Part shown: positions 16,742-31,330 of the stretch, piece by piece
Layout of the letters: each line of letters starts with the position of its first letter
Position numbering within the stretch: position 1 is the stretch's first letter
From: Patescibacteria group bacterium
Lineage (GTDB): Bacteria > Patescibacteriota > Microgenomatia > UBA8517
Direction: 5' to 3'
NCBI GenBank assembly: GCA_025999275.1
Contig: AP024680.1
Location: 750,522-785,860 of the forward strand
Length of the DNA: 35,339 bases
Notes under the pieces: generated by a model
What the model was told of the DNA's origin: nothing
The model's input: only the letters and a program-made list of their open reading frames with translations
Database searches by the model: none
Translations under genes and position numbers: made by a program

Positions 16742-19136
16742 ACCCAAGAGTCTTGCTGATCAATACGCAGAAAAAGGGATAAATCTAGCCAACAGTGGCG
16801 ATCTTGACAACGCCATAAAATTTTTCAAGAAGTCAATTAAACTTTCTCCAAATGCCCAGATTTACTATTTCCTTGGCTTAAGCCACCAATTAAAAGGAGA
16901 TCTTGAAAATGCCAAAAAATACTATCTGAAATCAATAAAAACAGATGACAAATACTCAATGTCATATAACAACTTAGGAGTCATTTATCTTGACCAAAAA
17001 GAATACTCAAAAGCAGTTAATTGCTTCGAAAAATCAATAAAATCAGATATATCAAATTCCTTTGCATATAACAATCTAGGCAATGCCTACAAAAAAATGG
17101 GAGACTCTAAAAAGGCCAAACAAGCATGGAAAAACGCCATCAAGATATTTCCCCGACTTCCCGAACCTTATAACAATCTGGGAGTTTTGGCTTACGAGGA
17201 AAAAAAATACAAAAAAGCAATTTCCTACCTTAAAAAAGCTGCTGATATTGACCCTGAGTACATTCAACCGCTATATCACCTTGGTTTTGTTTTTGCCCGT
17301 TTGAAAAAATTCAACATAGCCTCAAATTACCTTGAAAAATATATAAAAAAAGCAAAACCAGACGCCAACACTTTAGCGCTTTTGGCAAATTGTTACCTTA
17401 ACTGCGGCAAGCTCAAAGAAGCTCTTGAAAAGTTTGAGGAAGCATTAACTTTAGAACCTGAATCTCCGTTTATTATTAATGATTTGGGTAATTTATATAA
17501 ACAGATTGGGGATCTTGAAAAGGCCGCCTATTATTACCAAAAAGCGCTAAAGATAAACCCAAAACTTGACGGAACATTAAACAATTTAGGAACAGTATTT
17601 TTTAATCGCAGGCAATACCAAAAAGCAATTAACACCTTCACCAAAGCGATTGAAATCAACCCCAACATATCAACTGCCCACTACCACTTGGGCCTAATCT
17701 TTGAAAGGCAAGGAAAGTTTGACAAGGCAGCAAGGCATCTTGTTAAAGCCTATCAAATTGATCCTGAGCTTGGAGAGGCTTTGAATGTTATCACCTACCT
17801 TACCATGCAAGGATGCCTTTATGATAAATATGATTACTATTCCAAAAAACTTGACGAGCTGACAATAAAAGAAATCAAAAAAGGCGGAAAAATAAGCCAG
17901 TCGCCATTTTTAAACACTGTAAGAACTGAAGATCCAAAAACCCATCTTCAAATTGCCAGTCAAAAAAGCCGCGAAATAAAAGAAGATGTCAAAGGCTATC
18001 TTGAAAACTGGAAAACACCAAAATTTAAAAGAAAAGGTGTAATTACCCTGGGATATCTTTCAAATGACTTTTACGATCATGCCACAACCCATCTAATCCA
18101 AAGGCTTTTCAAGCTTCACAATCGAAACCGCTTTGCCGTTTATGCCTACTCATACGGACCAGACGACAAAAGCCCTTATAGAAAAATGCTTGAAAAAGAC
18201 GCTGATCTTTTCGTTGACATTAAAGACTTAAGTTTTATTGATGCGGCAAGAAAAATTAGACAGGACGGCGTTGATATCCTAATTGACCTGAAAGGTCACA
18301 CAAGAGACAGCCGTCTTGAGATTTTGGCCCTTCGTCCCTCCCCCATTCAAATCCACTATCTTGGCTACCCGGGAACAACTGGTGCTGACTTCATAGACTA
18401 TTTTCTCACCGATTCTGTAATTACCAGAAAAGAAGACGAAAAATACTTCAGCGAAAAGCTAATTTATCTGCCAAACTCTTACCAGATAAACAACAATCAA
18501 AGGCAGATTTGGAAAGGAGAAATAACAAAAGAGGAAATGGGAATTCCCAAAAACAAATTTGTCTTTTGCTCTTTTAATCAAAGCTACAAAATTAACCGCA
18601 GGACACTTTATCTTTGGCTTGAAATTCTAAAAAAAGCAAAAGAATCAGTCTTGGTTTTGCTTGAAACAAATAGTTTTGCGCCGCGGGAAATAAAAAAGGA
18701 AGCGGAAAAAAACGGCGTTAATCCAAAAAGGATAATTTTCGTTCCCCGACTGCCGCAAGAGAAACACTTGGCAAGAATTGGGCTTTGCGATCTTGCTCTT
18801 GATACTCTAACTTGTAATGGCCATACCACCACTTCTGACACCTTATGGGCAGGAGTGCCTGTTGTTGCCCTTTATGGAAAACACTTTGCCTCGCGCGTCA
18901 GTTCAAGTCTGCTTTCGGCAATTAACCTGAAAGAGCTTATTACCCATTCTGGAAAAGAATATCTTGAGCTTGCAGTTGATCTTTACAAAAATCCAAAAAA
19001 ATTAGAAAAAATAAAAAAGAAACTTGAAAAAAATAGACTAAAAGCGCCCCTTTTTGACAGTGAACAAACAGTTAAAAATCTTGAGAAAGCTTTTTTGGAA
19101 GCTGTAGAAAGGAAATTTGGGAAGGTGTCAAGCTAG
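16731..19136 (+). CDS. TPR-repeat protein O-GlcNAc-transferase-like glycosyltransferase (GT41, SPINDLY family), paralogue 2
   Basis: About 10 TPR units plus the same GT41 motifs (GYLSNDFYDHATTHL, ALRPSPIQIHYLGYPGT, CSFNQSYKI, CNGHTTTSDTLWAGVPV). The ATG at 16731 overlaps the upstream stop by 11 nt (track TTG at 16719). The last codons and the stop lie inside a REP. Confidence 0.9.
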   Translation: MKIEPKSLADQYAEKGINLANSGDLDNAIKFFKKSIKLSPNAQIYYFLGLSHQLKGDLENAKKYYLKSIKTDDKYSMSYNNLGVIYLDQKEYSKAVNCFEKSIKSDISNSFAYNNLGNAYKKMGDSKKAKQAWKNAIKIFPRLPEPYNNLGVLAYEEKKYKKAISYLKKAADIDPEYIQPLYHLGFVFARLKKFNIASNYLEKYIKKAKPDANTLALLANCYLNCGKLKEALEKFEEALTLEPESPFIINDLGNLYKQIGDLEKAAYYYQKALKINPKLDGTLNNLGTVFFNRRQYQKAINTFTKAIEINPNISTAHYHLGLIFERQGKFDKAARHLVKAYQIDPELGEALNVITYLTMQGCLYDKYDYYSKKLDELTIKEIKKGGKISQSPFLNTVRTEDPKTHLQIASQKSREIKEDVKGYLENWKTPKFKRKGVITLGYLSNDFYDHATTHLIQRLFKLHNRNRFAVYAYSYGPDDKSPYRKMLEKDADLFVDIKDLSFIDAARKIRQDGVDILIDLKGHTRDSRLEILALRPSPIQIHYLGYPGTTGADFIDYFLTDSVITRKEDEKYFSEKLIYLPNSYQINNNQRQIWKGEITKEEMGIPKNKFVFCSFNQSYKINRRTLYLWLEILKKAKESVLVLLETNSFAPREIKKEAEKNGVNPKRIIFVPRLPQEKHLARIGLCDLALDTLTCNGHTTTSDTLWAGVPVVALYGKHFASRVSSSLLSAINLKELITHSGKEYLELAVDLYKNPKKLEKIKKKLEKNRLKAPLFDSEQTVKNLEKAFLEAVERKFGKVSS

Positions 19137-19170
19137 TACACCCTAAGGGTGTCTTAGGTTGGCACCTTCC
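19130..19170 (+). repeat. REP copy 6 (hairpin only), overlapping the stop codon of OGT paralogue 2
   Basis: GGAAGGTGTCAAGCTAGtACACCCTAAGGGTGTcttAGGTTGGCACCTTCC. The TAG within AAGCTAG is the CDS stop (19134-19136). Confidence 0.9.
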
Positions 19171-19184
19171 TTACTAAATAATAG

Positions 19185-20033
19185 ATGAGGATCATTAATA
19201 ATAAATTTATCGCCGTCAAAAAGTGCCGATACGGTTATTTTGCCTACAACAAAAACGACCTTTTTGTTGGCCGCTCGCTTGATTTATATGGCGAGTGGAG
19301 TCAGCCTGAATTTGACCTGCTTGGAAAATTTATTAATCCCGGCGATATTGTTCTTGATATTGGCGCCTACATTGGCACCCACAGCGTCTTTTTTGCCAAG
19401 AAAGTCTCCCCCGGCGGCCTTGTTATTGCCATCGAGCCACAAAGAACAGCCTACAACCTTCTTAACACCAACATCAGCCTAAATGAGCTTCTAAACGTCA
19501 TTACCATTCACAAATTTGCCTCAAATATCCATCAAAAAATAACCGTTCCCCTTTTAAACCCCTATGTAAAACAAAACTTTGGTGCTATCAAAATCAGTAA
19601 ATTCAAAGAAGGAGAAATTGTCGAATCTGTTTTAATTGACGACTTTCATCTTTCAGGCTGTAATTTAATCAAGATTGACACCGAGGAAAACGAAGACAAA
19701 ATCATAGAAGGCGGGCTAAAAACAATAAAGAAATATAAACCAATAATTTATGTTGAAAACAATGAAATTCAAGATTCAGAAAGAATAATCAGCGCTATTA
19801 AAAAAATCGGCTATTTCCCCTACTGGCACATCTTCTCCTATTTTAACCCCAACAATTTCTTTAAAAATCCAAAAAATGTATTTTCAAAATTTGGCCCTGA
19901 GGCAAATATGATTTGCTTTCCAAAAACGCCAAACAAACTTCCAGCAAATTTAATAGAAGTAGCAGGGCTAAAAGACAACTGGGAAAAAGCAAGAGAAAGG
20001 CTTACCTTGCCAAGAAAAGACAAAAAGATATAA
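19185..20033 (+). CDS. FkbM-family SAM-dependent methyltransferase
   Basis: 282 aa. VLDIGAYIGTHSVFFAK...VIAIEP matches the SAM-binding motif of the FkbM family, and the IKIDTEE motif is also present. Confidence 0.8.
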   Translation: MRIINNKFIAVKKCRYGYFAYNKNDLFVGRSLDLYGEWSQPEFDLLGKFINPGDIVLDIGAYIGTHSVFFAKKVSPGGLVIAIEPQRTAYNLLNTNISLNELLNVITIHKFASNIHQKITVPLLNPYVKQNFGAIKISKFKEGEIVESVLIDDFHLSGCNLIKIDTEENEDKIIEGGLKTIKKYKPIIYVENNEIQDSERIISAIKKIGYFPYWHIFSYFNPNNFFKNPKNVFSKFGPEANMICFPKTPNKLPANLIEVAGLKDNWEKARERLTLPRKDKKI

Positions 20034-20041
20034 TAAAAAAG

Positions 20042-20560
20042 ATGAAAATTACAGACATCAATGGAATTCAAAGGGATTGTCTAAAGGTTACTTCAGATCC
20101 AGCTTACCCCGGATTTGTCAAGGTTGACTATATGCCTCACTTTAGAAAAGGAGACATTTATAGCGAATGGTATCCAATTGATCAATTCCTTGAGAAAAAT
20201 CCGGAATTTAAAAAAGTATTCGCAAAAACCAAAATCCAAGAAGACTTAGGAGTTGTTGGCTATGCCTCAAGTCTAACTCTGGTTGATCGAACCAAAAAAT
20301 GGGAAACAAATGTCTTCAAAGACATAACAGTTTGGATATCAAGAGGAAAAGGCGAAGGACAAACAAGAAAAATCGTCTCAAACAGCGAGGACACACTCAT
20401 AATAGATAAACCTTGGAAAGTAGTGCCCGATAAAACTTCACAATATGTAATTTCAAACAATGTCAACGACCCGCAAGTTCTTGGAAACACCCTGCCTGAG
20501 GTCAAAGAAGAAAAGAAAAGAAAAAAGAAAAAACTTGACTTAAAAATAGTTGTAGATTAA
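20042..20560 (+). CDS. hypothetical protein with Lys-rich C-terminal tail
   Basis: The track ORF starts at 19913 but overlaps the FkbM gene. The in-frame ATG at 20042 (MKITDING) lies 8 nt after the FkbM stop and is the likely start. Confidence 0.55.
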   Translation: MKITDINGIQRDCLKVTSDPAYPGFVKVDYMPHFRKGDIYSEWYPIDQFLEKNPEFKKVFAKTKIQEDLGVVGYASSLTLVDRTKKWETNVFKDITVWISRGKGEGQTRKIVSNSEDTLIIDKPWKVVPDKTSQYVISNNVNDPQVLGNTLPEVKEEKKRKKKKLDLKIVVD

Positions 20561-20569
20561 ATTAAAGAC

Positions 20570-21055
20570 ATGCAAATCACCAACCTCTTTAAGAAAAAAG
20601 AAGAAACAAAGGAAGAAAAATCAGCACCATTTACTCCTGTCAAAGTTCCTCCAAGAGATAAAAAAGGCAGATTCTTGCCTAAAAAAGAAAATAAAGAAAA
20701 AACAAAAGAAAAAAAGGAAGAAAAACCAGAAATTTTAAGCGTCACCTTCTTTGGCAAAGAAGTTAGAAAAGCCTACGCAGGTGGAAAATGGTATTTTGCC
20801 ATTGATGATATTTATAACATTGCCTACCCGCCAAAAGAAGGAGAAGTGGTCAAGACCACCGAAGAGTTTGAAAAGATTAAAAAAGAGGTAACTAAAGAAT
20901 TTGAAGGCATTCTATTTGCAGAAGCAGAAGGAATCAAAAAATTAATCGAGGAAATAAAAGGGGTTTTCCCCGGTCCTTTCACCCGCTGGCTTGATGAATC
21001 AGCCCAACTTCCATTTGTTCCACCACCCAAAGAGGAGAAAAAAGAAAATGAATAA
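20570..21055 (+). CDS. hypothetical protein: Lys/Glu-rich N-terminus plus weak Bro-N/KilA-N-like segment
   Basis: 161 aa. VTFFGKEVRKAYAGGKWYFAIDDIYNIAY resembles the F-x-F...R...WF..D....LGY pattern of Bro-N DNA-binding domains (weak, from memory). Confidence 0.45.
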   Translation: MQITNLFKKKEETKEEKSAPFTPVKVPPRDKKGRFLPKKENKEKTKEKKEEKPEILSVTFFGKEVRKAYAGGKWYFAIDDIYNIAYPPKEGEVVKTTEEFEKIKKEVTKEFEGILFAEAEGIKKLIEEIKGVFPGPFTRWLDESAQLPFVPPPKEEKKENE

Positions 21056-21338
21056 AAAAGTAAGATATATCCCCACACAAAATCCCGATCCTTTGGAAAA
21101 AATCCATTATGTCTGTAGTGGTGGCTGTGGTTTTGTGTCAAACACTCCCGGCAAATGCTACACCGCAGGCTGCTACCGCTATCGAAATCCGTTAACTGAG
21201 TGTCGATGTAAAGACGGATTACACCAGGACATTATTACCAGAAATGTAGATAAAGATCTCCCTCTTCCCCCAAATACTACTCTCAAAGCTGTCCCGATCT
21301 CAAAAACCAAAAAATCAGCGACAAAAAGTAAAAAATAA
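21048..21338 (+). CDS. small Cys-rich (6 Cys) zinc-ribbon-like protein with basic tail
   Basis: The in-frame ATG at 21048 (MNKKVRY) overlaps the upstream stop by 8 nt. The motif is HYVCSGGCGFVSNTPGKCYTAGCYRYRNPLTECRC. Confidence 0.5.
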   Translation: MNKKVRYIPTQNPDPLEKIHYVCSGGCGFVSNTPGKCYTAGCYRYRNPLTECRCKDGLHQDIITRNVDKDLPLPPNTTLKAVPISKTKKSATKSKK

Positions 21339-21383
21339 TATAAAAGTATATCTTTTTGCGTCAAAAGTAACATTTTTGGGGTA

Positions 21384-21413
21384 TTGACAAATAATAAAAG
21401 AGCAACCTATACT
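21384..21413 (+). promoter_or_regulatory. promoter candidate TTGACA-18-TATACT upstream of 21442..23478
   Basis: Perfect -35 and 5/6 -10 in the only sizeable intergenic gap (103 nt) inside the 19185-25738 gene string. Confidence 0.45.
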
Positions 21414-21441
21414 GGTTTAGACGGCAATCTTTTAATAATTT

Positions 21442-23478
21442 ATGGCTATATCAGACGACTTTACCATCGATTATGTAAATAAGAGGATTTATCATTCCTC
21501 AGGAACTACTATCTACACTGTAAACGCACTCTATTCTTATCTTCAGAACACTTTTGACGAACCAGAGCAAATGGATGATCCAATCCCGATGTCTGCCCAG
21601 ACTCCTACTGAGTATACCTTAATTAATGGCTGGTTCATGAACGAGGCAAGAGAGGGCTCCCCTTCCCGAAATTGCTTTGAATTTCTCAAAGGCGGAGCTA
21701 TAAAAACAGATGGTCAAAATGGAGAAATTCAAATATTAACACTTAATTCATCCGGTTATACCAATGCTGTTGTTTCAGATATAGGAAAAATTGTAAAAGA
21801 CGATGGGGCTGACACTGGTCCCCTTCTTGACTATGATAATACCAATCGCAAGTGGTGGATAAGGGCCTCAAGCACAATTGCAAGTGGCTCAGCTATAACA
21901 ATTACAAGCGGAACTGGAGCTGGAACTGCAGCTGCCAATTCAGCAACAGGAGAACAACTTTGGGCAAACATTTACACTCTTGGATCCATCGAGGAGGATT
22001 TGTCAGCTCCATCTGGGCAAAAACAGCAAATCTATATTGAACAGAACGGATCTCGTATATTTTCAGGTACAGAATGGTGGCCTGAAGGCGGAGAGTCAGC
22101 AACCACAAGGCATATTGATATACTCCTTAAAGTAAAAGAGGCTAGCCAGGAAATTGACGGAGCCCAAATTACAGTCTTCTTGCGCCATTATCAAAGCCAA
22201 CCCACTGAATCTAACCCCGCAGATCTTTACGACCACTTTAGCATTGACCTTTCCTCAGGTGGACGAAACGCTGTCCCTCTTGCTACCGCAAACGACCTTA
22301 ACAATACATCTTATCAGTCAACTGTATCAGGTTACAACGACATAACCATTGCTTTTGTTAATGGAACCATTAGCTATAGTGCAATAAATGGATCATTCCC
22401 TAGCTTCCAAACAGTAACTGGAAGTTCATCGGGTGCGACTGGAATTGTCCTAAAGCAAACCACAACTTCAGGAGCAGGAACTTTGACCTTGGGAAATGTA
22501 GTTGGAACCTTTCAAAATGGCGAGTCTATTTCAGGAGGTGGGGTTTCTGCCACCTCCTCCTCAACCTTAACCGAGGCTTACAAAATGCCAAAGAACTTCG
22601 AGCAGGGTTCAGAGTATAACTATTCTGTTATTATAGACTGCGCTGGAAGGCCGCTATCTCAGGTCTATGAATACCTAAAGTATGTAACAAGAATCGGCTC
22701 AACTTTCACCATGTACCCCACCATCTACCCACAAGGCGGTCCCCTTTCACACACCACCAAACAAGGACAACTTTATATTAGGGCCCATGAAGATACTCAA
22801 ACCACACCCACAAATACATTCTCCCCCGTTAAGGCCTCTCCTTTTGGAACTTTTGCAGGAGGTAAATTCTTCGGCGCCCAAGGTATCTGGATTGAAAATA
22901 TGGCAGCTTCTGATATTCAGAACTTTCAGCTTATTGATTCTGATGGCTCAACCAGGACTCCTCCCAACAAGCAGTCAATCACAATTACCAACCTTCTTTC
23001 AGATGACCGCGTGGCAGTATTTAGAACCACATCAGGAACAACTATCAACAAGGCAATGTACACAGCAGGAGCTGGAAATAATAGTGGCAATACCACCTTT
23101 GTAGTAAATGAGAGCATTGCCGTTGATACACCAGCATCAGGAGTTATTAGAATTGTTGACACATCAGACAACACAAACACGCGAGAAACAAGGTACACTT
23201 ATACAAGCTGGTCTGGCTCAACATTCTCCGGTCTATCTCCGGCTTTAAACAGAAACTACACACAAACGGAAGATACTGCCTATGTTCCATTTATTGACAC
23301 AACAGCAAGCGGCACTTCGGTTTCAGTTACCGTCATTTACACTACAGATAGAACAATTCTGGTCCGCGTAAGAAGATATACCCCAACTGCTATTTTGCCT
23401 TTTGAAACAACTGGAACATTTGGATCCACAGGTTATGCAACCAGTGCTATAAGAACTGTCGATTCAATTGTCAGCTAA
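21442..23478 (+). CDS. large Ser/Thr/Gly-rich protein, no signal peptide (fibre/virion-like)
   Basis: 678-aa ORF downstream of TTGACA-18-TATACT (21384-21413). No TM or signal peptide. The composition is like the 933-aa protein. Confidence 0.75.
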   Translation: MAISDDFTIDYVNKRIYHSSGTTIYTVNALYSYLQNTFDEPEQMDDPIPMSAQTPTEYTLINGWFMNEAREGSPSRNCFEFLKGGAIKTDGQNGEIQILTLNSSGYTNAVVSDIGKIVKDDGADTGPLLDYDNTNRKWWIRASSTIASGSAITITSGTGAGTAAANSATGEQLWANIYTLGSIEEDLSAPSGQKQQIYIEQNGSRIFSGTEWWPEGGESATTRHIDILLKVKEASQEIDGAQITVFLRHYQSQPTESNPADLYDHFSIDLSSGGRNAVPLATANDLNNTSYQSTVSGYNDITIAFVNGTISYSAINGSFPSFQTVTGSSSGATGIVLKQTTTSGAGTLTLGNVVGTFQNGESISGGGVSATSSSTLTEAYKMPKNFEQGSEYNYSVIIDCAGRPLSQVYEYLKYVTRIGSTFTMYPTIYPQGGPLSHTTKQGQLYIRAHEDTQTTPTNTFSPVKASPFGTFAGGKFFGAQGIWIENMAASDIQNFQLIDSDGSTRTPPNKQSITITNLLSDDRVAVFRTTSGTTINKAMYTAGAGNNSGNTTFVVNESIAVDTPASGVIRIVDTSDNTNTRETRYTYTSWSGSTFSGLSPALNRNYTQTEDTAYVPFIDTTASGTSVSVTVIYTTDRTILVRVRRYTPTAILPFETTGTFGSTGYATSAIRTVDSIVS

Positions 23479-24431
23479 TGTCTGACCTAATTAATTACTT
23501 TATCTCCAATGAAGGAAGCCTTGATAATGCAAGCCTTGAATTTGACAAGCTTGTAAACTACCTCTCAACCCTTGAAAACTTCAGGGTGCAAATAGACAAT
23601 CAAAAAGCTTCTCTTTTTTGTTTTGAATCAGGGAAACAGTCTTTTCTTGCCTTTAGAGAAAAGGCAACTTCCGACTCAATCTTCAACAACCAAATAGTCT
23701 ATTCTTGTGAACAAAACGATTGGCAAAGCACAAAAAGCCTAAACAAAGCAATAAAAGAATACGGATACCGCCTTTTTAACCCAGCCCTTGGCTTCTTTTT
23801 AACCAACAATGAAAACTTAACTGATCTTTATAACACCATTGTTGAAGAAAAATTAAAAAAAATATTTAGAAAATTTGGGCTAGTTCCTCTTTTTAAGTAT
23901 GAAAACAGCCTTGTTTATTATGCTCAAGACATAAAAAATAAGTCTGTAAACCTTGTTAACCGCCACCTTCTTGAATTTCTGCTATCTCAGGAGGAAATAT
24001 TTGGTAGAAAAGAAGACTTTTCTGTTAAAGTAGCTGATGATATTCCAAGATTCATCGCCCTTTTTGACCGCGGGTTAATCCCAATTTCTTTTTATAAGAC
24101 CGCTTCAAGCAAAAGCAATGTGATTAATCTAAGCGGTATTGATCTTGAAGAAACAAAAGAAAAAATAATTGTCACACCTGTTTTTTTTGAATTTGTCCCC
24201 TCAAAACAAGCCTTTAGAAACTCTCCCAAAACTCCTTTTATAAAAGAAAATCTAATCCCCAAAGGCGGATCAATCAAAGATTATCTAAAAGCAATAAACG
24301 AAGGATCTTTCTTTAAAGGTAAAATTATATCTGTTAAAGTAGGCCACGATATTGCTTTTGAAACCGACAGGCAAAAAAATCCTATTCCAAGAATAACTGT
24401 TAGTATATTTTTAGATGAACAAAATGATTAA
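23478..24431 (+). CDS. hypothetical protein (317 aa)
   Basis: Its start overlaps the upstream stop (TAATG), which implies translational coupling. No family recognised. Confidence 0.65.
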   Translation: MSDLINYFISNEGSLDNASLEFDKLVNYLSTLENFRVQIDNQKASLFCFESGKQSFLAFREKATSDSIFNNQIVYSCEQNDWQSTKSLNKAIKEYGYRLFNPALGFFLTNNENLTDLYNTIVEEKLKKIFRKFGLVPLFKYENSLVYYAQDIKNKSVNLVNRHLLEFLLSQEEIFGRKEDFSVKVADDIPRFIALFDRGLIPISFYKTASSKSNVINLSGIDLEETKEKIIVTPVFFEFVPSKQAFRNSPKTPFIKENLIPKGGSIKDYLKAINEGSFFKGKIISVKVGHDIAFETDRQKNPIPRITVSIFLDEQND

Positions 24432-24439
24432 AATAAACT

Positions 24440-25738
24440 ATGGCTACACTAACTTTTCTAAAATACGACAAAGTAATCCAAGTTGATGCCCCACAAGTTG
24501 AGGTAACAATACAGGATTTAATCAACCAAATACGCGACTACGAAGATGAACTTGAAAATATGGATATTGAAAAGATCGCCGACGCCTACGGAAAGCAGCC
24601 ACTTGGAACCAACGAATTCATAGGTATTACTCTGGTCCTTGTTAATGACTGGAGAATTGCATTTGAAGCAAGACCGGGACCTGATACTGTTACCTGCTAT
24701 GTAAGAGGTGGAAATTTGGTTGCTGAGAATATTTATGACAATAACCCAATCAAACCAACTGCTTTTACCCAGGTTGTCATTGCCCAATCATCATCACCCA
24801 CAATTATTAGAGCTGAGTCTGATTATGGAGCTTTGTTTTTAATCGAATCATTAAGAGGAAAACATGCTTCTTTGGGAAATATATTTTACTGGAATCCAAT
24901 TTCAGGAAGTGACAGCAACAGCGGAACAAGTCCTCAGACAGCAGTTAAGACCTTTGACAAGGCCCAATCTCTTGCCACAGTCGGAAATCATGACATCATC
25001 TTTGCCATATCAACTGATCCATCAGGAGTAACAACAGTCACCACTCCCATAAGCATCACCAAATCAACTTTAAAACTTCGTGGACCAGGCTTCCCCTTTC
25101 AGTTTGCCCCAACAACAGCCGGTAGCCCAACAATTCAAATTGCCGCTGACGGAGTCGAGCTTTCAGGATTTTATGTTACCACCGCAAGCGGCGGATCTGA
25201 TAATGGAATTGAAATTTCAGGAGACAATGTTTTAATCAAAGACTGCTGGGTAAGTGGTGCCAGTGCAAATGGAATTTATGTTACCAACGCTTCAAGAACC
25301 CAAATTGACACCTGCGCAATTGAAGACTGCGGCCTAAATGGAATTTTGCTTTCAAGTTCAACAGCGCTATCAACTATCAAAAAATGCATAATCACCGGAA
25401 ATCAAAACGGCGTTTCCCTTTCGGGAACAAATATTAACGATAATATTTTTGAAACTAACTTAATCTATAATAACACAGGCACGGGAATTAATATTGGAAC
25501 AGGAGTCTTAAGAACTGGAATAAGACTGCTTCATACCTTTGCCGGAAATGCAGTCAATATACAAGACCTTGGCACAGGTACATTCCAGGACACTTCAGGA
25601 ACAATTACTCAAGGAGATATCGATGCCATTGTAGATGGCGTTTGGGATGAGATAATTGGTACCCATACTACCCCAGGCTCTGCAGGCAAGACGCTTAAAG
25701 ACGCAAAAACCAAAGCCACTCTTGCTTCGCTGAAGTAA
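24440..25738 (+). CDS. right-handed parallel beta-helix repeat protein (pectate-lyase/NosD-like fold), tail-fibre-like N- and C-termini
   Basis: 432 aa. Beta-helix repeats are present (GIEISGDNVLIKDCWVSGASANGIYVTNASRTQIDTCAIEDCGLNGILLSSS...ITGNQNGVSLSG...NNTGTGINIG). No signal peptide. A REP follows at 25744. Confidence 0.8.
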   Translation: MATLTFLKYDKVIQVDAPQVEVTIQDLINQIRDYEDELENMDIEKIADAYGKQPLGTNEFIGITLVLVNDWRIAFEARPGPDTVTCYVRGGNLVAENIYDNNPIKPTAFTQVVIAQSSSPTIIRAESDYGALFLIESLRGKHASLGNIFYWNPISGSDSNSGTSPQTAVKTFDKAQSLATVGNHDIIFAISTDPSGVTTVTTPISITKSTLKLRGPGFPFQFAPTTAGSPTIQIAADGVELSGFYVTTASGGSDNGIEISGDNVLIKDCWVSGASANGIYVTNASRTQIDTCAIEDCGLNGILLSSSTALSTIKKCIITGNQNGVSLSGTNINDNIFETNLIYNNTGTGINIGTGVLRTGIRLLHTFAGNAVNIQDLGTGTFQDTSGTITQGDIDAIVDGVWDEIIGTHTTPGSAGKTLKDAKTKATLASLK

Positions 25739-25743
25739 TATTT

Positions 25744-25794
25744 GGAAGGTGCCAAGCTAGTCCACCCTAAGGGTGTTTTAGGTTGGCACCTTCC
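25744..25794 (+). repeat. REP copy 7 (hairpin only)
   Basis: GGAAGGTGCCAAGCTagtCCACCCTAAGGGTGTtttAGGTTGGCACCTTCC, 6 nt after the stop of 24440..25738. Confidence 0.9.
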
Positions 25795-25819
25795 TCTTAG
25801 CCAGTTCCCCTTTTTCCTA

Positions 25820-25848
25820 TTGCATTTTTAAATTCGAAAGTTTATTCT
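25820..25848 (+). promoter_or_regulatory. promoter candidate TTGCAT-17-TATTCT upstream of tatA paralogue 1
   Basis: Hexamers and spacing counted by hand, immediately after REP copy 7. Confidence 0.35.
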
Positions 25849-25858
25849 AAGGCTAGTT

Positions 25859-26071
25859 ATGAATTTCTTAAGAAACATAGGCACTCCAGAAATCATAATA
25901 ATTACCTTGATTTTGATTATCTTCTTTGGCAGCAAAAGAATGAACGAGATGGCCCGTCAATTAGGAGAGGCAAGCAAAGAGTTAAAAAAGGCAAAAAAGG
26001 AAGCTAAAGAAGGAATTGAAGCCGTTAAAGAAGAAGTAAAATTAGAAGACAGCAAGAAAGGGGGTGCTTAG
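25859..26071 (+). CDS. tatA: TatA/E-family protein, divergent paralogue 1 with long charged tail
   Basis: 70 aa. An N-terminal TM is followed by FFGSKRMNEMARQLGEASKELKKA (the F-G hinge plus amphipathic helix pattern). Confidence 0.7.
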   Translation: MNFLRNIGTPEIIIITLILIIFFGSKRMNEMARQLGEASKELKKAKKEAKEGIEAVKEEVKLEDSKKGGA

Positions 26072-26072
26072 A

Positions 26073-26216
26073 ATGCCATCAAGAGTAGGAACAGCAGAGA
26101 TTGTCATCATCGCCTTAATAATATTGGTCTTTTTTGGCGGAAAGAAATTGCCAGAGTTTATAAAAGGATTGGGGGAAGCAGTTAAAGAATTCAAAAAAGC
26201 CTCAAAAGAGGAATAG
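26073..26216 (+). CDS. tatA: TatA/E-family protein, paralogue 2 (not in ORF track, 47 aa)
   Basis: Hand translation gives [47 protein letters not shown]. The ATG lies 2 nt after the upstream stop. Confidence 0.75.
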   Translation: MPSRVGTAEIVIIALIILVFFGGKKLPEFIKGLGEAVKEFKKASKEE

Positions 26217-26314
26217 AAAAAGTCGTCTAGACCTTAGTATTGATAAAGATTAAAGGCTTCTTTGGTCTGTTATGGCTAATAGAATAATTTAGGAATACCT
26301 AATATTTTAACCAA

Positions 26315-26363
26315 CCCCGCCGTAGGCGGGGACCAACTGTGACTAACCCCGCCGTAGGCGGGG
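26315..26363. repeat. two identical GC-rich hairpins CCCCGCCgtaGGCGGGG, 32 nt apart
   Basis: Hairpins at 26315-26331 and 26347-26363, flanked by ACCAA...ACCAA and ACTAA...ACTAA respectively. They are the only GC-rich perfect stems noticed in the window. Confidence 0.8.
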
Positions 26364-26420
26364 ACTAACTTCGACAAGCTTTGACCAGCATCTGACAGCC
26401 AACAACTGATAACTAACGTC

Positions 26421-26469
26421 TGACAGCTGACAGCTGATGACTGATGGCTGATAGCTGATAGCTGATAGC
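26421..26469 (+). repeat. heptamer array, 7 contiguous units of TGATAGC type
   Basis: tgacagc tgacagc tgatgac tgatggc tgatagc tgatagc tgatagc. Shorter arrays occur at 35236-35252 and, inverted and degenerate, at about 33860-33900. Confidence 0.85.
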
Positions 26470-26531
26470 TTTTTTACCTTTTACCCCCCAACCATCTTTC
26501 ACTTCCCCCATCAATTTGATAGACTAAAATT

Positions 26532-27290
26532 ATGGCCAAAGGTTCCGCTATTAACCCCGAATTACAAAAGGTCATAAACAAAAATTTACCCTTCTTAATG
26601 GAGATAAGAAGAAGAATTCTTTTTACAGCTTCCGTGTTTTTAGTGTTCTCGTTTTTAGGCTTTTTCTACTACGAAAAAATAATCAAGTCCGTCTTCAATC
26701 TGCTAAATCTGCCTGCTGTTAACATTGTCTTTACTTCCCCATTCCAATATATGGAGTTGGCGATAAATTGCGGAGTGGCAGTTGGGCTTGTCATCAGTTT
26801 CCCTTTGATAATTTGGCAGCTGCTTTCATTTCTAAAGCCGGCGCTTAAGCCAAAGGAATTTAGAATCATACTTCTTCTTTTGCCTGTTAGTTTAGCCTTA
26901 TTTGCCGGAGGTTTTGGAGTTGGAATCTGGATGATGAGATATGTGGTCTCTCTTTCCTATCAAAAATCAGTAGAGCTTTCAATTGGAACACTACTTGACA
27001 TCAGCTCTCTTCTCTCAAAGATTATAGTCACTTCCTCTTTAATGGGGATAGCCTTCCAATTCCCCATTGTTATGACTGCTTTGATGCAGCTTAACATTGT
27101 CAAAACCAAAAAATTTGCCAAACAAAGACCGCTCATCTACACTTTGGCAATTATATTTGCTGCTCTAATGCCTCCAACTGACATCTTTTCCCTTCTTCTT
27201 CTAACTTTACCTCTTGTAATTCTATTTGAACTTACGCTATTATTAAACAAGTTAGTCAAACCTGAAAAAGGGAGGGGGTGGAAAAAATGA
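26532..27290 (+). CDS. tatC: twin-arginine translocase subunit TatC
   Basis: 252 aa with 6 TM helices. The motifs [20 protein letters not shown] and [19 protein letters not shown] are typical of TatC. Confidence 0.9.
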
Positions 27291-27439
27291 GAGGAATTGG
27301 AACAACAGAATTAATTATTATCGCAGTCGTACTCTTGATTCTTTTTGGAGGTAAAAAACTTCCTGAGCTGGGAAGAGGGTTGGGAGATGCAATAAAGGAA
27401 TTCAAAAAATCAGTAAAGGGTAAGGAAGACAAAAAATAG
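27287..27439 (+). CDS. tatA: TatA/E-family protein, paralogue 3 (not in ORF track, 50 aa)
   Basis: Hand translation gives [54 protein letters not shown] overlap with the tatC stop. Confidence 0.8.
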
Positions 27440-27446
27440 TCTTTTT

Positions 27447-27845
27447 ATGGCTTTGCTTGCACCTTTGATTTTTATTTTTCTAGTCTTCCCCCTTTATATT
27501 GTTGAAATCTTCCTGCCCTATCCTTATTTTGTAGAAGAACTGGCTAAGTTCTTTGTTGTTTATTTTGTAATTAGCTATCAAAAAAAAGCAAGAAAAAGGC
27601 TTGAAGTTGCTCTTGTGTCAGGTTTCTTATTTTCTCTCTCTGAGACTCTACTCTACTTTGCTACCGCTTCAATGATGGGAGGAATAAATATTATCATCAC
27701 CAGATTTATTCTTACCTCCTTAATGCACTGCCTAACAATTAGTCTTATGACCATTTCTTTAAACAAGAAAAATCTAATCTTTTTAGCTCTCCTGTTATCA
27801 ATTGGTATCCACTATTTCTTCAATCTTATGATAATGAAGTTCTAA
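27447..27845 (+). CDS. small polytopic membrane protein with PrsW/CPBP-like intramembrane protease motifs
   Basis: 132 aa. VEELAKF (EExxK), GFLFSLSE and LMHCLT resemble PrsW-family motifs, but the protein is shorter than typical PrsW. Confidence 0.4.
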   Translation: MALLAPLIFIFLVFPLYIVEIFLPYPYFVEELAKFFVVYFVISYQKKARKRLEVALVSGFLFSLSETLLYFATASMMGGINIIITRFILTSLMHCLTISLMTISLNKKNLIFLALLLSIGIHYFFNLMIMKF

Positions 27846-27885
27846 AAGCTGATTGACAACAACCAACACCCCTTAATTCATAATT

Positions 27886-27920
27886 CTTAAATCTTAAATC
27901 TTAAATCTTAAATCTTAATT
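27886..27920 (+). repeat. heptamer array (CTTAAAT)x5 within a word mosaic
   Basis: cttaaat x4 plus cttaatt. It is flanked by CATAATT, CTTACTA and CCCATAC word tracts (27860-28010). The same words occur at 5089-5204, 5323-5390 and 14523-14580, and inverted at 3440-3600, 9470-9540 and 33920-34100. Confidence 0.8.
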
Positions 27921-28027
27921 CTTTCCCCCCTTACTACTTTCTACCTTCTACTTACTACTATTTTTAATCTTCCCATAACTAATACCCCACCATTCATAAT
28001 TAATACTGTATGATTTTTGACTATCGT

Positions 28028-28143
28028 ATCCGTGTACTAGTCTACGGAACCGATTATTACTTCTAATTACTATCAATACATCGATGTATTGATAGTTGTT
28101 TATGGTCTTTTACAACTAGCAACCAGTGTGAAAATTTCTATAC
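28028..28143 (+). repeat. conserved intergenic core, copy 2 (perfect 26-bp palindrome at 28070-28095)
   Basis: CTATCAATACATC|GATGTATTGATAG is a perfect 13+13 palindrome centred on ATCGAT. The flanks match copy 1. Confidence 0.8.
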
Positions 28144-28192
28144 ACACCCATAATTCATGCCCCCATTCCATTATTCACAATTCATATTAGTA

Positions 28193-28260
28193 CCATTTTG
28201 CCTTTTCCTTTCTGATGTTAAATAGGAATTTTTGAATTTCGAATTCTAACTTTTGAATTA
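28193..28260. repeat. AT-rich module, partial copy
   Basis: CCATTTTGCCTTTTCC...TTTTTGAATTTCGAATTCTAACTTTTGAATTA next to REP copy 8. Confidence 0.6.
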
Positions 28261-28269
28261 AACCCTCCA

Positions 28270-28336
28270 GGTGTCAAGCTATTCTTTAAAGAAGGTGTCA
28301 AGCTAGGACACCCTTAGGGTGTATTAGCTTGACACC
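28270..28336 (-). repeat. REP copy 8 (full)
   Basis: GGTGTCAAGCTattctttaaagaAGGTGTCAAGCTaggACACCCTTAGGGTGTattAGCTTGACACC, 7 nt from the stop of the minus-strand 869-aa gene. Confidence 0.9.
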
Positions 28337-28342
28337 CAACTA

Positions 28343-30952
28343 CTAATTGTCAGCATCAGCAGAAGAAACAAAATCCTGCAAAACCCAACCTTCAAAAACA
28401 GGCTTGACTCCTTTTTCGTCCTTCAAAACTACCTTAATCCAACCTCCGGCCTGATCTATTTTAGTCAACTCTTTGGCAGAAGAAACCTCATAAATAGTCT
28501 TGGCGTCAGTATCAGGCTTTTCCTTTACTTTAACAGACTGTCCATCTTTGGCCGAAACCCTAACAATCTCTTCCCCACCTTTGCCATTTTCATCTTCAAC
28601 TGAAAGAACCTTGTTTTGAGTCTCATTTTTAACAACTTCTAACTTCTGGCTTTCTGAACTCTCATTTTGTACTACTTTAGAAGACTTTAAAATTACCTGC
28701 CTCACTACAAAGGCCGAAACCAAAGATGATAAGATAGCAACCATTATAAATGGAGTAAACCCTTTTAGAGCCTTTCTAGAATGCCCTGGGGCACTTTTTT
28801 CCTGACTAACAACTTCTTCTTCCTTTTTAACTTTCTTACTCTTCTTTGATACTCTAAGATAGAAAAGCAAAAGAACAAAGCCAGCAACAACAACAGCCAC
28901 TATTCCCCAAACAGTCAAAACCTGAGCACCACCAACAAAACCAAGATAAGCACCGGCAGAACTGGCCTGGGAAACCAAAGTCTTAAGGCTGTCCATCTTT
29001 TGGTTAACAGAGTTAAGTTCAATCTGCGCCTCTCGATAGGCTTTAATCTTCTGTTCGGGAGTATTTGCCTGGCTCTGCAAAGATAATATCTTATCCAGAG
29101 AAACATTAATATCGCTTTTCAAAGTCACGCCTTGAGCAAAATAAGCCGTCTTCTCAAGTGGCCTTGATAATTCTTCAGCCTGCTTTCTTAAACTTTCAAC
29201 CTGATCTTTGGAAATCACCCAGATATCATCAACCCTAACAGCCAAAGTCTTTGTTTCACCAGCTGCAAGCTCAAATTCCCCTTCAACATAATACTGATCT
29301 TTCTCGGTGTCATACTTAACAGAAAGCCCCTCATCAACCTCAAGAATATCCTCTTCTTTAACTTCAGGAGGTAAATAATACTTAACCGGCACTTTTTGGG
29401 AAACAATGTTTGATGGGTTGGTTATTAAAGATTTAAAGACAATACTTCCCTCCTCAAGCCAAGTGTTGGCAAATGCAGTCTTTGGTCCCTTGGCAAGATA
29501 AAGACGGTTGGCAGCAATTAAAGCTTTAAGACCCAAAAGCTTATTTTTAAGTTGTTTTGAATAAGAAGCATCCTTTGCCTTGGATGAAAGAGCAAGCAAT
29601 GCTTTTGGGATCCTGTTAATTGATAAGATATTTCTTGTCAATTGTGAAGATTTTGCATCAATTTCTTTTTCATTTATACTGTTTAGACTGGCAATTGTTT
29701 TATCAACCTCCGCCTCATTTTTGTCCAAAGCCAAAGCCAAGGTCTGAATCTCATCTATCTTGCCATAAATACTTTTTGCACCTTGCTTATCTGAAACATT
29801 ACCAATCATCTTTTCTAAAGTATCAAGGTAAAAAGCCAGTCCCTTAATTTCCCGATAAGAAGAAGTTGATTTGCCTGAAGAGGCAACCATGTTTTGAACC
29901 GAAGAAATGGTTGAATCTATTGCCAAAATCTGATCAGCAGCATCTTCAGCCTCTTTCCATCCCCAACTGTTTTTAAGCCAATTTACCTGACCAAAAAGAC
30001 TGGAGGAAGAATCAGTATCGCCCCTTTCCCCAACAGTCTTCTTCAAATCCATCAAAATATCAAGAATTTCATCGGTTGAAAGGCTGTTCCATTTTCCTGC
30101 CAAAATCGAGCTCTTGCTTCTAACAAATTGACTATTAATAAATATAGACTCGGCAACTGATTTTGTCTGATCAAGTTTAGAATTTAAGCTAATATTATCA
30201 TCCTCAATGAAATTCTGAATAATAGGCTTGTTGACTAGTTTCTCCAAAATGAGTCGGGTTTCCTGAGTTGTCTTCTTAATATCATTTGTGGTTTTAACTA
30301 AACTGGCAATATCACCACTATTTCCAGAAACACTAGACGAAAGGTTTTCAACATCGCTTCTAGTTGCCAAAGAGCCACTTGAAAGGTCTGATCCTGTGAG
30401 TGTTCTTGTTGCATAACTCCAGATATTTGAAACCAAAGAACCAAAACTGGTTAAAGTACGGCCGGAGTAGTTCCAAATATCAGAAGCCAGCGTTCCAAAA
30501 CCAGAAAGTGTTCTGCCCGAATAATTCCAAACAGCATCTGCAATCTCAGTTGCAGTGGGACCACCACTGCCGCTTGACTTTACTTCAAAACTTTTGTCAA
30601 GACACATATTTTGCCCATCAACAACACAGCAAAGCTGGGTTCGATAATAACCCTCAGTTGAAGGGCCAGTAAAAGAATAACCATACCAACCATCAGTGGT
30701 AGCAGTAATTGAGCCAATATTTAAAAATTCAGAGCCATCAGGATAGCGGCTTTCAAGAGAACAGGTGGCATTGGTAACCTTGTTATAAGAATCATCATAA
30801 ATAAACTCACCAACCGTGCAGTTTTGAGAAGTTATGCAAGTTGAAGGGCTGCCCGCTGCAGCCTCTATGCTTTGAGGATGCATAAAGGCTGCAATTATGG
30901 CTACTAATAAAGCTTGAGACGGCAAACTTTTGAATCGGGCAGTTTTAATCAT
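28343..30952 (-). CDS. large secreted/membrane-anchored envelope protein: signal peptide, Cys-rich domain, 3 x 18-aa repeats, long coiled-coil region, TM hairpin, C-terminal SH3b
   Basis: 869 aa. The signal-like N-terminus ends IEAAAG. Repeats: WNYSGRTLSGFGTLASD / WNYSGRTLTSFGSLVSN / WSYATRTLTGS. TM segments lie at about residues 675-700 and 740-762. The SH3b-like end is GGWIKVVLKDEKGVKPVFEGWVLQDFV. Confidence 0.8.
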   Translation of the reverse strand: MIKTARFKSLPSQALLVAIIAAFMHPQSIEAAAGSPSTCITSQNCTVGEFIYDDSYNKVTNATCSLESRYPDGSEFLNIGSITATTDGWYGYSFTGPSTEGYYRTQLCCVVDGQNMCLDKSFEVKSSGSGGPTATEIADAVWNYSGRTLSGFGTLASDIWNYSGRTLTSFGSLVSNIWSYATRTLTGSDLSSGSLATRSDVENLSSSVSGNSGDIASLVKTTNDIKKTTQETRLILEKLVNKPIIQNFIEDDNISLNSKLDQTKSVAESIFINSQFVRSKSSILAGKWNSLSTDEILDILMDLKKTVGERGDTDSSSSLFGQVNWLKNSWGWKEAEDAADQILAIDSTISSVQNMVASSGKSTSSYREIKGLAFYLDTLEKMIGNVSDKQGAKSIYGKIDEIQTLALALDKNEAEVDKTIASLNSINEKEIDAKSSQLTRNILSINRIPKALLALSSKAKDASYSKQLKNKLLGLKALIAANRLYLAKGPKTAFANTWLEEGSIVFKSLITNPSNIVSQKVPVKYYLPPEVKEEDILEVDEGLSVKYDTEKDQYYVEGEFELAAGETKTLAVRVDDIWVISKDQVESLRKQAEELSRPLEKTAYFAQGVTLKSDINVSLDKILSLQSQANTPEQKIKAYREAQIELNSVNQKMDSLKTLVSQASSAGAYLGFVGGAQVLTVWGIVAVVVAGFVLLLFYLRVSKKSKKVKKEEEVVSQEKSAPGHSRKALKGFTPFIMVAILSSLVSAFVVRQVILKSSKVVQNESSESQKLEVVKNETQNKVLSVEDENGKGGEEIVRVSAKDGQSVKVKEKPDTDAKTIYEVSSAKELTKIDQAGGWIKVVLKDEKGVKPVFEGWVLQDFVSSADADN

Positions 30953-30964
30953 TTCTTTCTAAAG

Positions 30965-31105
30965 CTACTCCTTAGCTGCTTTCTTAAATTCCCTTATCGC
31001 ATCGCCCACTCCTCTTGCCAATTCCGGCAACTTTTTACCTCCGAAAAGCAAGAGTAAAACTAAAGCGATAACTATCAGCTCAGGCGCTCCAATATTATTG
31101 AACAC
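30965..31105 (-). CDS. tatA: TatA/E-family protein, paralogue 4 (not in ORF track, 46 aa, GTG start)
   Basis: Hand translation of the minus strand gives [46 protein letters not shown]. An SD-like GGGGGTGA lies 9 nt upstream. The stop is 12 nt before the 869-aa gene. Confidence 0.65.
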   Translation of the reverse strand: MFNNIGAPELIVIALVLLLLFGGKKLPELARGVGDAIREFKKAAKE

Positions 31106-31315: not shown

Positions 31316-31330
31316 TTTTATAAAGCAAAA

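Follow-up and report, generated by a model that had tools for sequence, protein, structure and literature searches.

A phage-type appendage cassette in a Tat-bearing accessory island of a Microgenomatia genome

The stretch of DNA analysed here, called the window, comprises the last 35,339 bases (positions 750,522 to 785,860) of contig AP024680.1, the single-contig genome of a Patescibacteria group bacterium of the Microgenomatia (785,860 bp, 35% G+C). It contains an accessory island in which three genes with phage relatives, F933, P1 and P2, lie together with genes of the twin-arginine translocation (Tat) system. Throughout, c0, c1 and c2 denote the phage genes, and F933, P1 and P2 their homologues in the window. 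The genome under study is G000; G001 and G002 belong to the same genus, and G014 to another genus of the same family. The features that carry the argument are as follows, with protein lengths in amino acids (aa).

4827..32377, no strand: accessory island of 27.5 kb, between an M23 peptidase gene (3714-4826) and rho (32378-33721)
6582..7211, + strand: RR6582, with two N-terminal transmembrane (TM) helices, an internal twin-arginine signal and a conserved domain of ~95 aa
11523..14324, + strand: F933, 933 aa, Ser/Thr-rich, its C-terminal ~60-130 aa being the phage c0 domain
21442..23478, + strand: P1, 678 aa, a multi-beta-sandwich homologue of c1 related to gp53 of cyanophage Syn5 (by profile)
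24440..25738, + strand: P2, 432 aa, with the c2 N-terminal anchor domain (residues 1 to ~125), a beta-helix (148-390) and C-terminal helices with a motif
25859..26071, + strand: tatA (PF02416, E 6.6e-12)
26532..27290, + strand: tatC, the genome's only copy (PF00902, E 1.5e-37)
28343..30952, - strand: Env869, with a signal peptide, three W(N/S)Y..RTL(T/S) repeats, a long helical region, TM segments and a C-terminal SH3 domain

The open reading frames (ORFs) of the window were compared by blastp with those of viral loci, and only F933, P1 and P2 had viral relatives. The viral loci came from IMG/VR pattern scans, 27 with a P1 alignment and one with a single protein; viral counts refer to the 26 of these 28 that gave any blastp match to window ORFs. 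Homologues of P1 and P2 occurred in an identical set of 21 of the 26 loci, always adjacent and in the order c1, then c2, with c0 just upstream of c1 in 10. P1 and viral c1 shared 30-56% identity across residues 1-678 (21 loci). In P2, residues 1 to ~125 aligned with c2 of the same 21 loci, the beta-helix being an addition in P2. The minimal phage forms are short (c0 ~130 aa, c1 ~460 aa, c2 ~165 aa), and a few viral c2 proteins are full length (429-454 aa). A small conserved C-terminal domain follows a variable body in c0, and a ~125-aa anchor is followed by a variable tip in c2. With a c0 profile of 19 viral proteins, F933 was the sole match in the window (E 2.8e-24) and in the genome (E 6.5e-23).

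The viral contigs are from real tailed phages, podovirus-like and myovirus-like. Their hallmark families (terminase, portal, head-closure, tail sheath, tail fibre and DNA polymerase) were matched with E-values of 1e-19 to 1e-154. Examples are TerL (1.2e-154) and portal (1.4e-108) in L075, TerL and portal (3.2e-96) in L084, tail sheath (6.5e-63) in L071, and DNA polymerase with TerL in L083. No PHROG match was obtained for c3, c0, c1 and c2 of L075, and no Pfam match below E 0.01 for the c2 N-terminal domain (19 sequences). In sequence searches of the PDB, the c1 profile gave no match at E<=1 and the c2 N-domain profile two, at chance level. Neither P1, P2 nor L075 c1 had a tblastn match in 50,697 deposited phage records. 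The c2 N-domain profile matched 1790 clusters at E<=1e-3 among 1.84 billion representatives. The listing covers 150 of these, nearly all with the domain starting at or before residue 13 (one at 94), in proteins of 138-1081 aa, which points to a build of anchor and exchangeable tip.

Matches to a cultured phage were found in Syn5. Its gene 53, a 'structural protein', matched the myovirus-type c1 (tblastn 6e-8), and gp53 matched viral c1 by blastp (2.6e-22) and the A2 profile of the P1 family (6.8e-13). The c2 N-domain was matched by gp55 (A5 profile 1.7e-7). A large 'dark' phage family, c1/c2, absent from PHROGs and Pfam in these scans, is now tied to Syn5.

More than 1000 homologues were found for P1 and more than 465 for P2. 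Among the 120 matches listed for each, identities were 57-95% for P1 (most with 78-100% query cover) and 56-99% for P2 (most with 85-100%), and the source names of the nearest homologues include Roizmanbacteria, Woesebacteria and Shapirobacteria, names that suggest the Microgenomatia. P2 is far more conserved than P1, which occurs in at least two length classes and is 33% identical between G000 and G014.

The P2 model, with a predicted local distance difference test (pLDDT) score of 82.7, consists of a small alpha/beta N-domain, a low-confidence linker, a right-handed beta-helix and two C-terminal helices. Scores in the beta-helix region (residues 148-390) are mostly above 90. The top structural match of the helix was the tailspike of cyanophage Pam1 (Z 25.6, 219 aligned, root mean square deviation 2.2), followed by alginate and pectate lyases (Z 24-25) and other tailspikes. 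Foldseek placed Pel9A first (E 5.9e-6), and a faint tailspike match was present among the PHROGs (E 0.012). The C-terminal helices hold a VWDE..H...GS.G motif and an invariant ...KATLASLK end. An earlier note, made by a model from the letters of the window alone, had described the product of 24440-25738 as a pectate-lyase-type beta-helix, and both the structure model and Pfam (PF13229, E 7.7e-14) agree. It had also noted a phage flavour in the N-terminus and the C-terminal motif of P2, and this was right.

P1 was modelled as a string of beta-sandwich domains (pLDDT 86.4, predicted template modelling score 0.76), with two extra inserted beta-sandwich domains compared with c1. In the structure search, residues 509-676 were the sole part matching immunoglobulin (Ig)/transthyretin-like domains (best Z 9.6), which are common in phage tail and pilin proteins. 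Among the BFVD viral models, P1 had 45 weak matches, mostly unnamed, a few being 'baseplate wedge/J-like' with a template modelling score of at most 0.17. The term 'fibre-like' used in the earlier note was not confirmed for P1, whose chain of beta-sandwich domains shows no obvious long fibre. Three candidate identities were dropped. A Gram-positive pilin was the best Foldseek PDB match of P1 (E 5.1e-4), but with a template modelling score of 0.10, and for c1/c2 neither a P2/Mu-type baseplate J/I nor a sheath/tube had Pfam or fold support.

Serine and threonine make up 25% of F933 and 24-25% of P1, with 21 and 11 NxS/T sequons, respectively, and a pair of GT41 genes is nearby. In other loci of the candidate phyla radiation (CPR), c0 is adjacent to P1 bar P6. 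Here F933 lies 7.1 kb upstream, with the GT41, methyltransferase, P4, P5 and P6 genes in between.

Genome loci were found with the P1 alignment (n = 49), and 38 of them have P2. The order that recurs among them runs RR6582 - P4 - M8216 - (F933 or a gene for a giant P1-like protein) - P6 - P1 - (variable insert) - P2, continuing downstream with tatA (1-3 copies) - tatC - PrsW-like - Env869 - Fic-like. TatC was present in 28 of the 49 loci, TatA in 25, M8216 in 19, P4 in 18, P6 and Env869 in 16 each, and RR6582 and the PrsW-like protein in 15 each; all eight were missing from the 26 viral loci. In 28 of the 38 loci with P2, tatC was co-stranded near P2, mostly 7-2000 bp away, compared with none of the 26 viral loci. 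Ten P2 loci had no TatC. Three of these have fewer than 900 bases of contig left, and four, under non-CPR titles (archaea, Rubrivivax, Desulfarculales), combine a short P2 (175-447 aa) with no CPR neighbours, as would be expected of prophages or phage contigs in bins. Other loci (L011, L012, L014, L021, L023-L027 and others) bear the titles 'uncultured Gammaproteobacteria/Pseudomonadales' despite a CPR gene set; these titles look like unreliable labels, or placeholders.

P2 is rare. It was detected in 17 of the 401 genomes of a class sample (G000 included), from at least eight families and with four of the 17 matches partial, and in none of the 300 other genomes of an even phylum sample. TatC (PF00902) was present in 39 of the 401. 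All 17 P2-positive genomes were TatC-positive, with both genes on one contig and 51 to 11,575 bp apart. Among G000, G001, G002, G014 and G043, tatC was present only together with the island, and G001, G002 and G043 had none. A literature search of main texts brought up no account of phage-type genes adjoining Tat in CPR bacteria. The Tat system itself is recorded as present in Microgenomatia (PMC9166423). We conclude that the phage-derived appendage cassette is real, conserved and cell-owned, and that it is tied to a Tat-bearing accessory island.

In the 786-kb genome, the ORFs of the viral loci matched only F933, P1, P2 and two ORFs at ~239 and ~451 kb, each of which matches one L083 ORF. Profiles of the phage neighbours c3, c4, c5 and c7 had no match in the genome. 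Hallmark phage families were not matched in Pfam and PHROG scans of ORFs covering the island and most of the window, and the earlier statement that the window holds no capsid, portal, terminase, tube, integrase or lysis gene stands. Nor did the cassettes of CPR genomes ever lie beside capsid or terminase genes. Because the cassette is Tat-adjacent, in an island with the genome's sole tatC, and comes without hallmark genes, F933-P1-P2 is very probably a phage cassette that was captured into a Tat-bearing island of the cell, and not a prophage.

Three options had been offered by the earlier note for the segment 20042-25738: a domesticated receptor-binding module, a fibre exported by an unknown route, or the edge of a decayed prophage. 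The last would make the block a remnant tail-fibre module of a phage once integrated here. The cassette is of phage type, the island is missing in same-genus genomes and repeat copies lie at its flanks, all of which would suit such a remnant. We nevertheless consider it very unlikely, since the three genes are intact, with near-full-length homologues in hundreds of clusters, and since Tat, RR6582, P4, M8216, Env869 and the PrsW-like protein recur in 15-28 of the 49 loci, in many CPR lineages. The flanking repeats belong to the genome's ordinary family of repetitive extragenic palindromic (REP) sequences, the flanks are cellular, and apart from the two L083 matches no further phage-like ORF exists in the island or genome. 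The whole-genome check for prophage context thus left the domestication idea standing. A domesticated receptor-binding module is the best fit of the three, so that the note's overall reading is partly supported. For the exported fibre, the island's own TatA/TatC are a concrete candidate route. The segment itself was too narrow a frame, the functional unit being the island at 4827-32377.

The relationship between phage and cellular forms was analysed with an unrooted maximum-likelihood tree of c1 (72 rows, 551 columns). Its input was blastp matches of 400-1100 aa with at least 350 aligned residues; giant and fragmentary proteins were left out. The window P1 fell in a well-supported clade of 26 genome rows without a viral member. 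Other CPR clades were placed beside the viral rows L059-L061, L083 and L009, and the minimal phage forms (16 rows) grouped apart in a clade supported at 100%. By this tree, phage-CPR exchange has occurred more than once. A phage origin of the cassette is favoured, but not proven, by the wide host range implied for the minimal forms.

In the reverse direction, an old CPR surface system would have been taken by phages, of CPR bacteria and of others, as an adsorption device. The interleaving of CPR clades with some viral rows is compatible with this, as is the CPR-like full-length P2 of viral L059-L061. Three observations make it improbable: minimal c1 (~460 aa) and c2 (~165 aa) form the separate, fully supported clade of 16 phage-contig rows; related copies occur under Rubrivivax, Nitrososphaerota, Desulfarculales and Woesearchaeota titles and in Syn5; and the cassette is rare in CPR bacteria (17/401 class genomes, 0/300 other genomes of the phylum sample).

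Capture from phage into the cell, the direction we favour, leaves the question of how the rest of the island is built. Its other features are listed by position.

4901..4969, no strand: REP-type palindromic hairpin at the left border, 93% identical over 70 nt (inverted) to 32300-32369
8216..8698, + strand: M8216, small membrane protein without Pfam or PHROG match
9878-10570, - strand: Y1 transposase of the REP-associated tyrosine transposase (RAYT) type, inside the island
10873..11517, + strand: glycosyltransferase-like protein (phrog_1574, E 2.7e-30; weak PHROG glycosyltransferase matches)
14585-16741 and 16719-19136, + strand: two protein glycosyltransferases with tetratricopeptide repeats (TPR) and a GT41 (OGT/HMW1C-type) domain (PF13844, E 2.3e-102 and 7.1e-97), present in 11-12 genome loci
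19185..20033, + strand: FkbM-type methyltransferase (PF05050, E 2.1e-13)
20042..20560, + strand: P4, 172 aa, signal-less, partner of RR6582 and M8216 elsewhere
20570..21055, + strand: P5, 161 aa, Lys/Glu-rich, poorly conserved (8 relatives)
21048..21338, + strand: P6, 96 aa, Cys-rich, preceding the 660-aa type of P1 in the order P6-P1
23478..24431, + strand: P3, 317 aa, an insert between P1 and P2 (c1 and c2)
27447..27845, + strand: PrsW-like intramembrane protease (PF13367, E 1.7e-6)
31331..32284, + strand: Fic-like protein with a helix-turn-helix (HTH) domain (PF08220, E 1.3e-5; PF02661, E 0.0023, below the cut-off), in 7 genome loci
32300..32369, no strand: REP-type hairpin at the right border, partner of the left-border copy

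From left to right, the island starts with two SH3 membrane proteins, RR6582, a dCache membrane protein and two small membrane proteins. It continues with the RAYT-type Y1 transposase, the glycosyltransferase, F933, the two TPR-GT41 proteins and the FkbM methyltransferase, and its right part holds P4, P5, P6, P1, P3, P2, tatA, tatC, the PrsW-like protease, Env869 and the Fic-like/HTH protein. P4 had no Pfam or PHROG match, and its protein atlas leads were at chance level (score <=0.83). P3 had neither a family match in Pfam and PHROGs nor a usable protein-atlas match; its homologues are limited to G014 and one Amesbacteria locus (L043), and other genomes carry different inserts at this place.

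The six + strand ORFs of 20042-25738, P4 to P6 and P1 to P3, are packed as tightly as the earlier note had described, and coordinates and junctions were checked against the letters. The junction at 21048 reads ATGAATAA, TAATG spans 23476-23480, and 24432-24439 is an 8-nt gap; upstream of P1 there is a gap of 103 nt. Across these six ORFs, the beta-helix and the faint tailspike match of P2 were nearly all that Pfam and PHROGs returned. A supposed internal promoter at 21384-21413 matches 11 of 12 consensus positions, but does not rise above chance: 21 promoter-like sites were counted in 19000-26600, against 16.5 +/- 4.0 in shuffled sequences. The likeness of P5 to Bro-N was likewise not supported, with no Pfam match at E<=0.1, the PF02498 model unmatched and no precomputed Pfam domain in any of the eight relatives; by eye, no more than a loose F.G..VR....G.W.F...DI pattern can be made out. 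The description of the six proteins as signal-less was correct, as none of the six N-termini, judged by eye, has a signal-like hydrophobic stretch. When the first 140 residues of each of the 1670 genome ORFs were scanned with a regular expression (regex), no twin-arginine motif came up in P1-P6, and in F933 neither a signal peptide nor a twin-arginine motif was found.

The comparison with sister genomes showed that the island, P1-P6 included, is absent from the same-genus G001 and G002. Both are complete, and in both a giant fibre gene is followed by the genes for a Wzy/TPR protein and the M23 peptidase and by rho, with a rho-M23 distance of 450 bp in G002 and ~1.9 kb in G001, compared with 27.5 kb here, and no island genes in between. 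G014 has the same gene set in the same order, but on the opposite side of the M23 gene. Between G000 and G014, island genes are 36-61% identical, M23 64% and rho 77%. At the DNA level, dispersed REP-like repeats were the sole matches to G001 and G002 (78 in G002). The REP family is likewise dispersed in G002 and is the ordinary repeat family of the genome, so the border copies may be a coincidence. Further REP-type copies were noted at 25763-25775, 9490-9620, 14405-14530, 26307-26470 and 27873-27960.

These border features bear on whether the whole island could be a so far unrecognised mobile element, with its own particle or vesicle on which the cassette is used. Its patchy occurrence across at least eight families, the insertion to one side of the M23 gene in G000 and to the other in G014, the REP copies at both borders and the transposase within could be read that way. 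The idea is nonetheless highly improbable: no integrase, replication, packaging or capsid gene is present, and the content is one of membrane, export and glycosylation genes. Moreover, the G000-G014 identities of the island are within the range of neighbouring cellular genes, a pattern expected from vertical descent with loss.

In G690, from another genus of the same family, locus L091 (G690:C4:150500-170499) has the order rho - M23 - tatC - tatA, then a 2245-aa ORF; this is the same chromosomal site, with neither P1 nor P2 present. Tat-linked islands encoding giant proteins seem to have a hot spot at rho/M23. At the left end of the window, a giant ORF (genome 743756-751174) has its C-terminal end at 3-653 and is 62-70% identical in G001 and G002. 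This giant fibre, on the side of the pam pilus genes, ends 4 kb before the island. It is followed by a helical 198-aa protein (661-1257; 65% in G002; no Pfam match at E<=1e-4) between the giant fibre and Wzy/TPR genes.

Two island proteins offer a possible connection between the cassette and the cell surface. In RR6582, the regex scan placed the twin-arginine motif at residue 88, and the signal runs from DRRAFLK to AEA, with the site before AFFGSVPGPG. The (R/K)RxFLK motif and AxA are kept in 16 of 16 aligned homologues, nine with RR and seven with KR. These homologues share two TM helices, a variable linker, the pattern D.(D/N)(R/K)R.FLK..G...h-region...A.A, then AFFGSVPGPG and the ~95-aa domain. 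Among the island's own proteins, RR6582 is a good candidate Tat substrate.

The earlier note had related the repeats of Env869 to the C-terminal motif of P2, and motif scans confirmed both as genuine and specific. Two of the three Env869 repeats fit a strict regex; the third, VWNYSGRTLS, was read directly. Across the 1670 ORFs of the genome, W(N/S)Y..RTLT occurs only in Env869 and VWDE..H...GS.G only in P2. Among all fetched loci, [VIL]W.[YWFA]..R.LT was restricted to Env869 homologues (8 loci and the window) and viral c2 tails (4), and VWDE..H...GS.G to P2/c2 (31 genome, 3 viral) and two Env869 homologues. This sharing suggests that the secreted, membrane-anchored Env869 displays a peptide found behind the anchor domain of phage c2.

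The best overall explanation is that a captured phage virion-appendage cassette is displayed by way of Tat and serves an adhesive or glycan-cutting function; we put its probability at about 0.6. F933, P1 and P2 would fold, and perhaps be glycosylated, in the cytoplasm. The island's Tat translocase would take the folded complex across the membrane, perhaps with RR6582 as carrier, as the cassette proteins have no signal of their own. Env869 would hold the exported complex at the cell surface, where the appendage could grip and cut glycans on a host cell or surface polymer. The cell probably owns the three phage-type genes as a tool with which to grip or cut sugars on surfaces, and a surface role of the cassette is plausible. 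Taken by itself, Tat-dependent surface display of F933-P1-P2 is possible, but doubtful. An undescribed export-and-display pathway across the single membrane of the CPR cell, with dedicated TatA/TatC, RR6582 as carrier, P4 as cytoplasmic helper and Env869 as dock, is a tentative and rather unlikely elaboration; docking would be by way of the short W.Y..RTLT / VWDE..H..GS.G motif, which is shared with phage c2 tails. A complex prediction of P1 with P2 (residues 1-130) and RR6582 (113-209) gave 'no answer' either way on RR6582 as a partner (score 0.00).

Several observations weigh against this explanation. P1-P6 and F933 carry no signal peptide or twin-arginine motif. Candidate Tat substrates also lie far from the island, four SRREFLK lipoproteins, one of them a polysaccharide deacetylase, so the Tat linkage could reflect co-carriage on one island and not a shared pathway. 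Of the 39 TatC-positive class genomes, 22 had neither a P2 match nor a match to the P1 profile, a profile run without a positive control. Eight of the 22 were inspected: three have a distant type of tatC (27-31%) and five the island type (41-52%), three of which adjoin other giant ORFs, once (G690) at the rho-M23 site. The core of P1 has no recognisable solved fold in structure searches, which leaves its role to be read from context alone. P2, beta-helix included, is 47-62% identical across families, unusually conserved for a receptor-binding protein; this would fit a constant target better than host-specific recognition, and suggests that P2 acts on such a target while P1 and c0 vary. The 'viral' loci L059-L061 with full-length P2 could be mis-sorted cell DNA, and the direction of transfer can be no more than probable, as the tree is unrooted and CPR and viral rows interleave.

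The SRREFLK proteins lie 30-57 kb before the window, in loci L098 and L099 (G000:C1:693176-694090, 707453-708484, 717503-718567 and 718865-719917). The three paralogues among these four have a lipobox-like Cys after the signal, and three of the proteins share an identical signal region over 39 residues.

Another reading of the same facts keeps the proteins inside the cell, in the cytoplasm or on the inner face of the membrane, for example as decoys or sensors in defence against phages with similar proteins or as a glycan-processing enzyme complex, with Tat merely co-carried. The missing signal sequences, the Tat substrates elsewhere in the genome and the occurrence of TatC without the cassette are in its favour. 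We regard it as unlikely, because TatC is on the same contig in 17 of 17 P2-positive genomes, usually within 3 kb and co-directional, because the signal-peptide protein Env869 shares a c2-specific motif, and because the tailspike-type beta-helix and the build of anchor and tip are features of extracellular virion parts.

Much of bacterial diversity belongs to the CPR, whose members live attached to other microbes. By what means they recognise their hosts and hold on to them is, to our knowledge, mostly unexplained. Tat is an export system able to move folded proteins. Here, a phage outer-particle module has been taken over by cells and is kept intact, next to Tat, in many lineages. If displayed, it would be a candidate for host recognition or glycan cutting by Microgenomatia and would give a reason for the patchy occurrence of Tat in tiny CPR genomes. 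If the pathway with RR6582 and Env869 were true, Tat would be the assembly route of a cell-surface weapon or adhesin, which would explain its retention in genome-reduced CPR bacteria without redox enzymes.

Among known systems, the closest phage counterpart is the gp53-gp55 region of Syn5 (NC_009531 genes 53-55). There, gp53 resembles c1/P1 and gp55 the N-domain of c2/P2, and the genes of both belong to a single late cluster that adjoins the terminase gene, an arrangement shared with viral locus L084. The BFVD model of a 622-aa structural protein, the length of gp54, weakly matches the P1 model (E 1.1e-3). Syn5 differs in being a complete phage, in its gp55 of 156 aa without a beta-helix, and in the gp54 gene between gp53 and gp55. 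Raytcheva et al. reportedly showed in 2014 that gp53 and gp54 form the Syn5 'horn'. Based on a 4.7-A map and secondary-structure prediction, gp55 was tentatively assigned to knob-like proteins on the capsid hexamers, and not to the tail (Gipson et al. 2014, PMC4102127). Given this assignment, 'virion appendage' or decoration module is a safer term than 'tail fibre'.

Tailspike depolymerases (Pam1 7eea, CBA120 TSP2, Dettilon gp208) share with P2 the fold of residues 148-390 (Z 25.6-21) and a small N-terminal anchor domain ahead of the helix. Polysaccharide lyases (Pel9A 1ru4, alginate lyases) share the right-handed beta-helix. Unlike both groups, which have no sequence family in common with P2 beyond PF13229, P2 is encoded by a cell without a virion.

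For export, the nearest parallel is hitchhiking on Tat, as in HybO/HybC and DmsA/DmsB of E. coli, where a signal-less folded partner is carried by a subunit with a Tat signal. The signal-less P1 and P2 beside RR6582, with its Tat signal, would resemble such pairs, except that no cofactor protein is involved here. Actinobacterial Rieske proteins have TM helices ahead of their Tat signal (dual Sec/Tat insertion), similar to the two helices before the conserved (R/K)RxFLK signal of RR6582. In Haemophilus influenzae, HMW1C (GT41) glycosylates the adhesin HMW1 in the cytoplasm before export. The island likewise has two GT41 enzymes next to Ser/Thr/Asn-rich proteins of exported type (F933, P1); HMW1, however, leaves by Sec and two-partner secretion, and the glycosylation targets here are guessed.

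Phage-fibre-like proteins have been linked to cells in two other cases. A 'tail fibre-like protein' is co-localised with the CPR pam pilus operon (Troman et al. 2026 preprint, PMC13278184). Like the cassette, it is phage-fibre-like and conserved in CPR genomes, but it is a different gene, the pam components all have Sec signal peptides, and Tat is never mentioned as far as the main text of the preprint goes. MAT (mosaic adhesive trimer) fibres of Bdellovibrio bacteriovorus are located on the predator surface and bind prey glycans (Caulton et al. 2024, PMC10769870). Their S74 chaperone-peptidase tip is not seen in P1, P2 or F933, none of which has the S74 peptidase family among its Pfam matches, and in the accessible part of that paper they are not reported with Tat. 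As phage-fibre-like proteins owned by a bacterium that lives on others, MAT fibres are a functional model only. If displayed, the F933-P1-P2 cassette would be a new reuse of phage parts by cells, beside tailocins, injection systems and these fibres.

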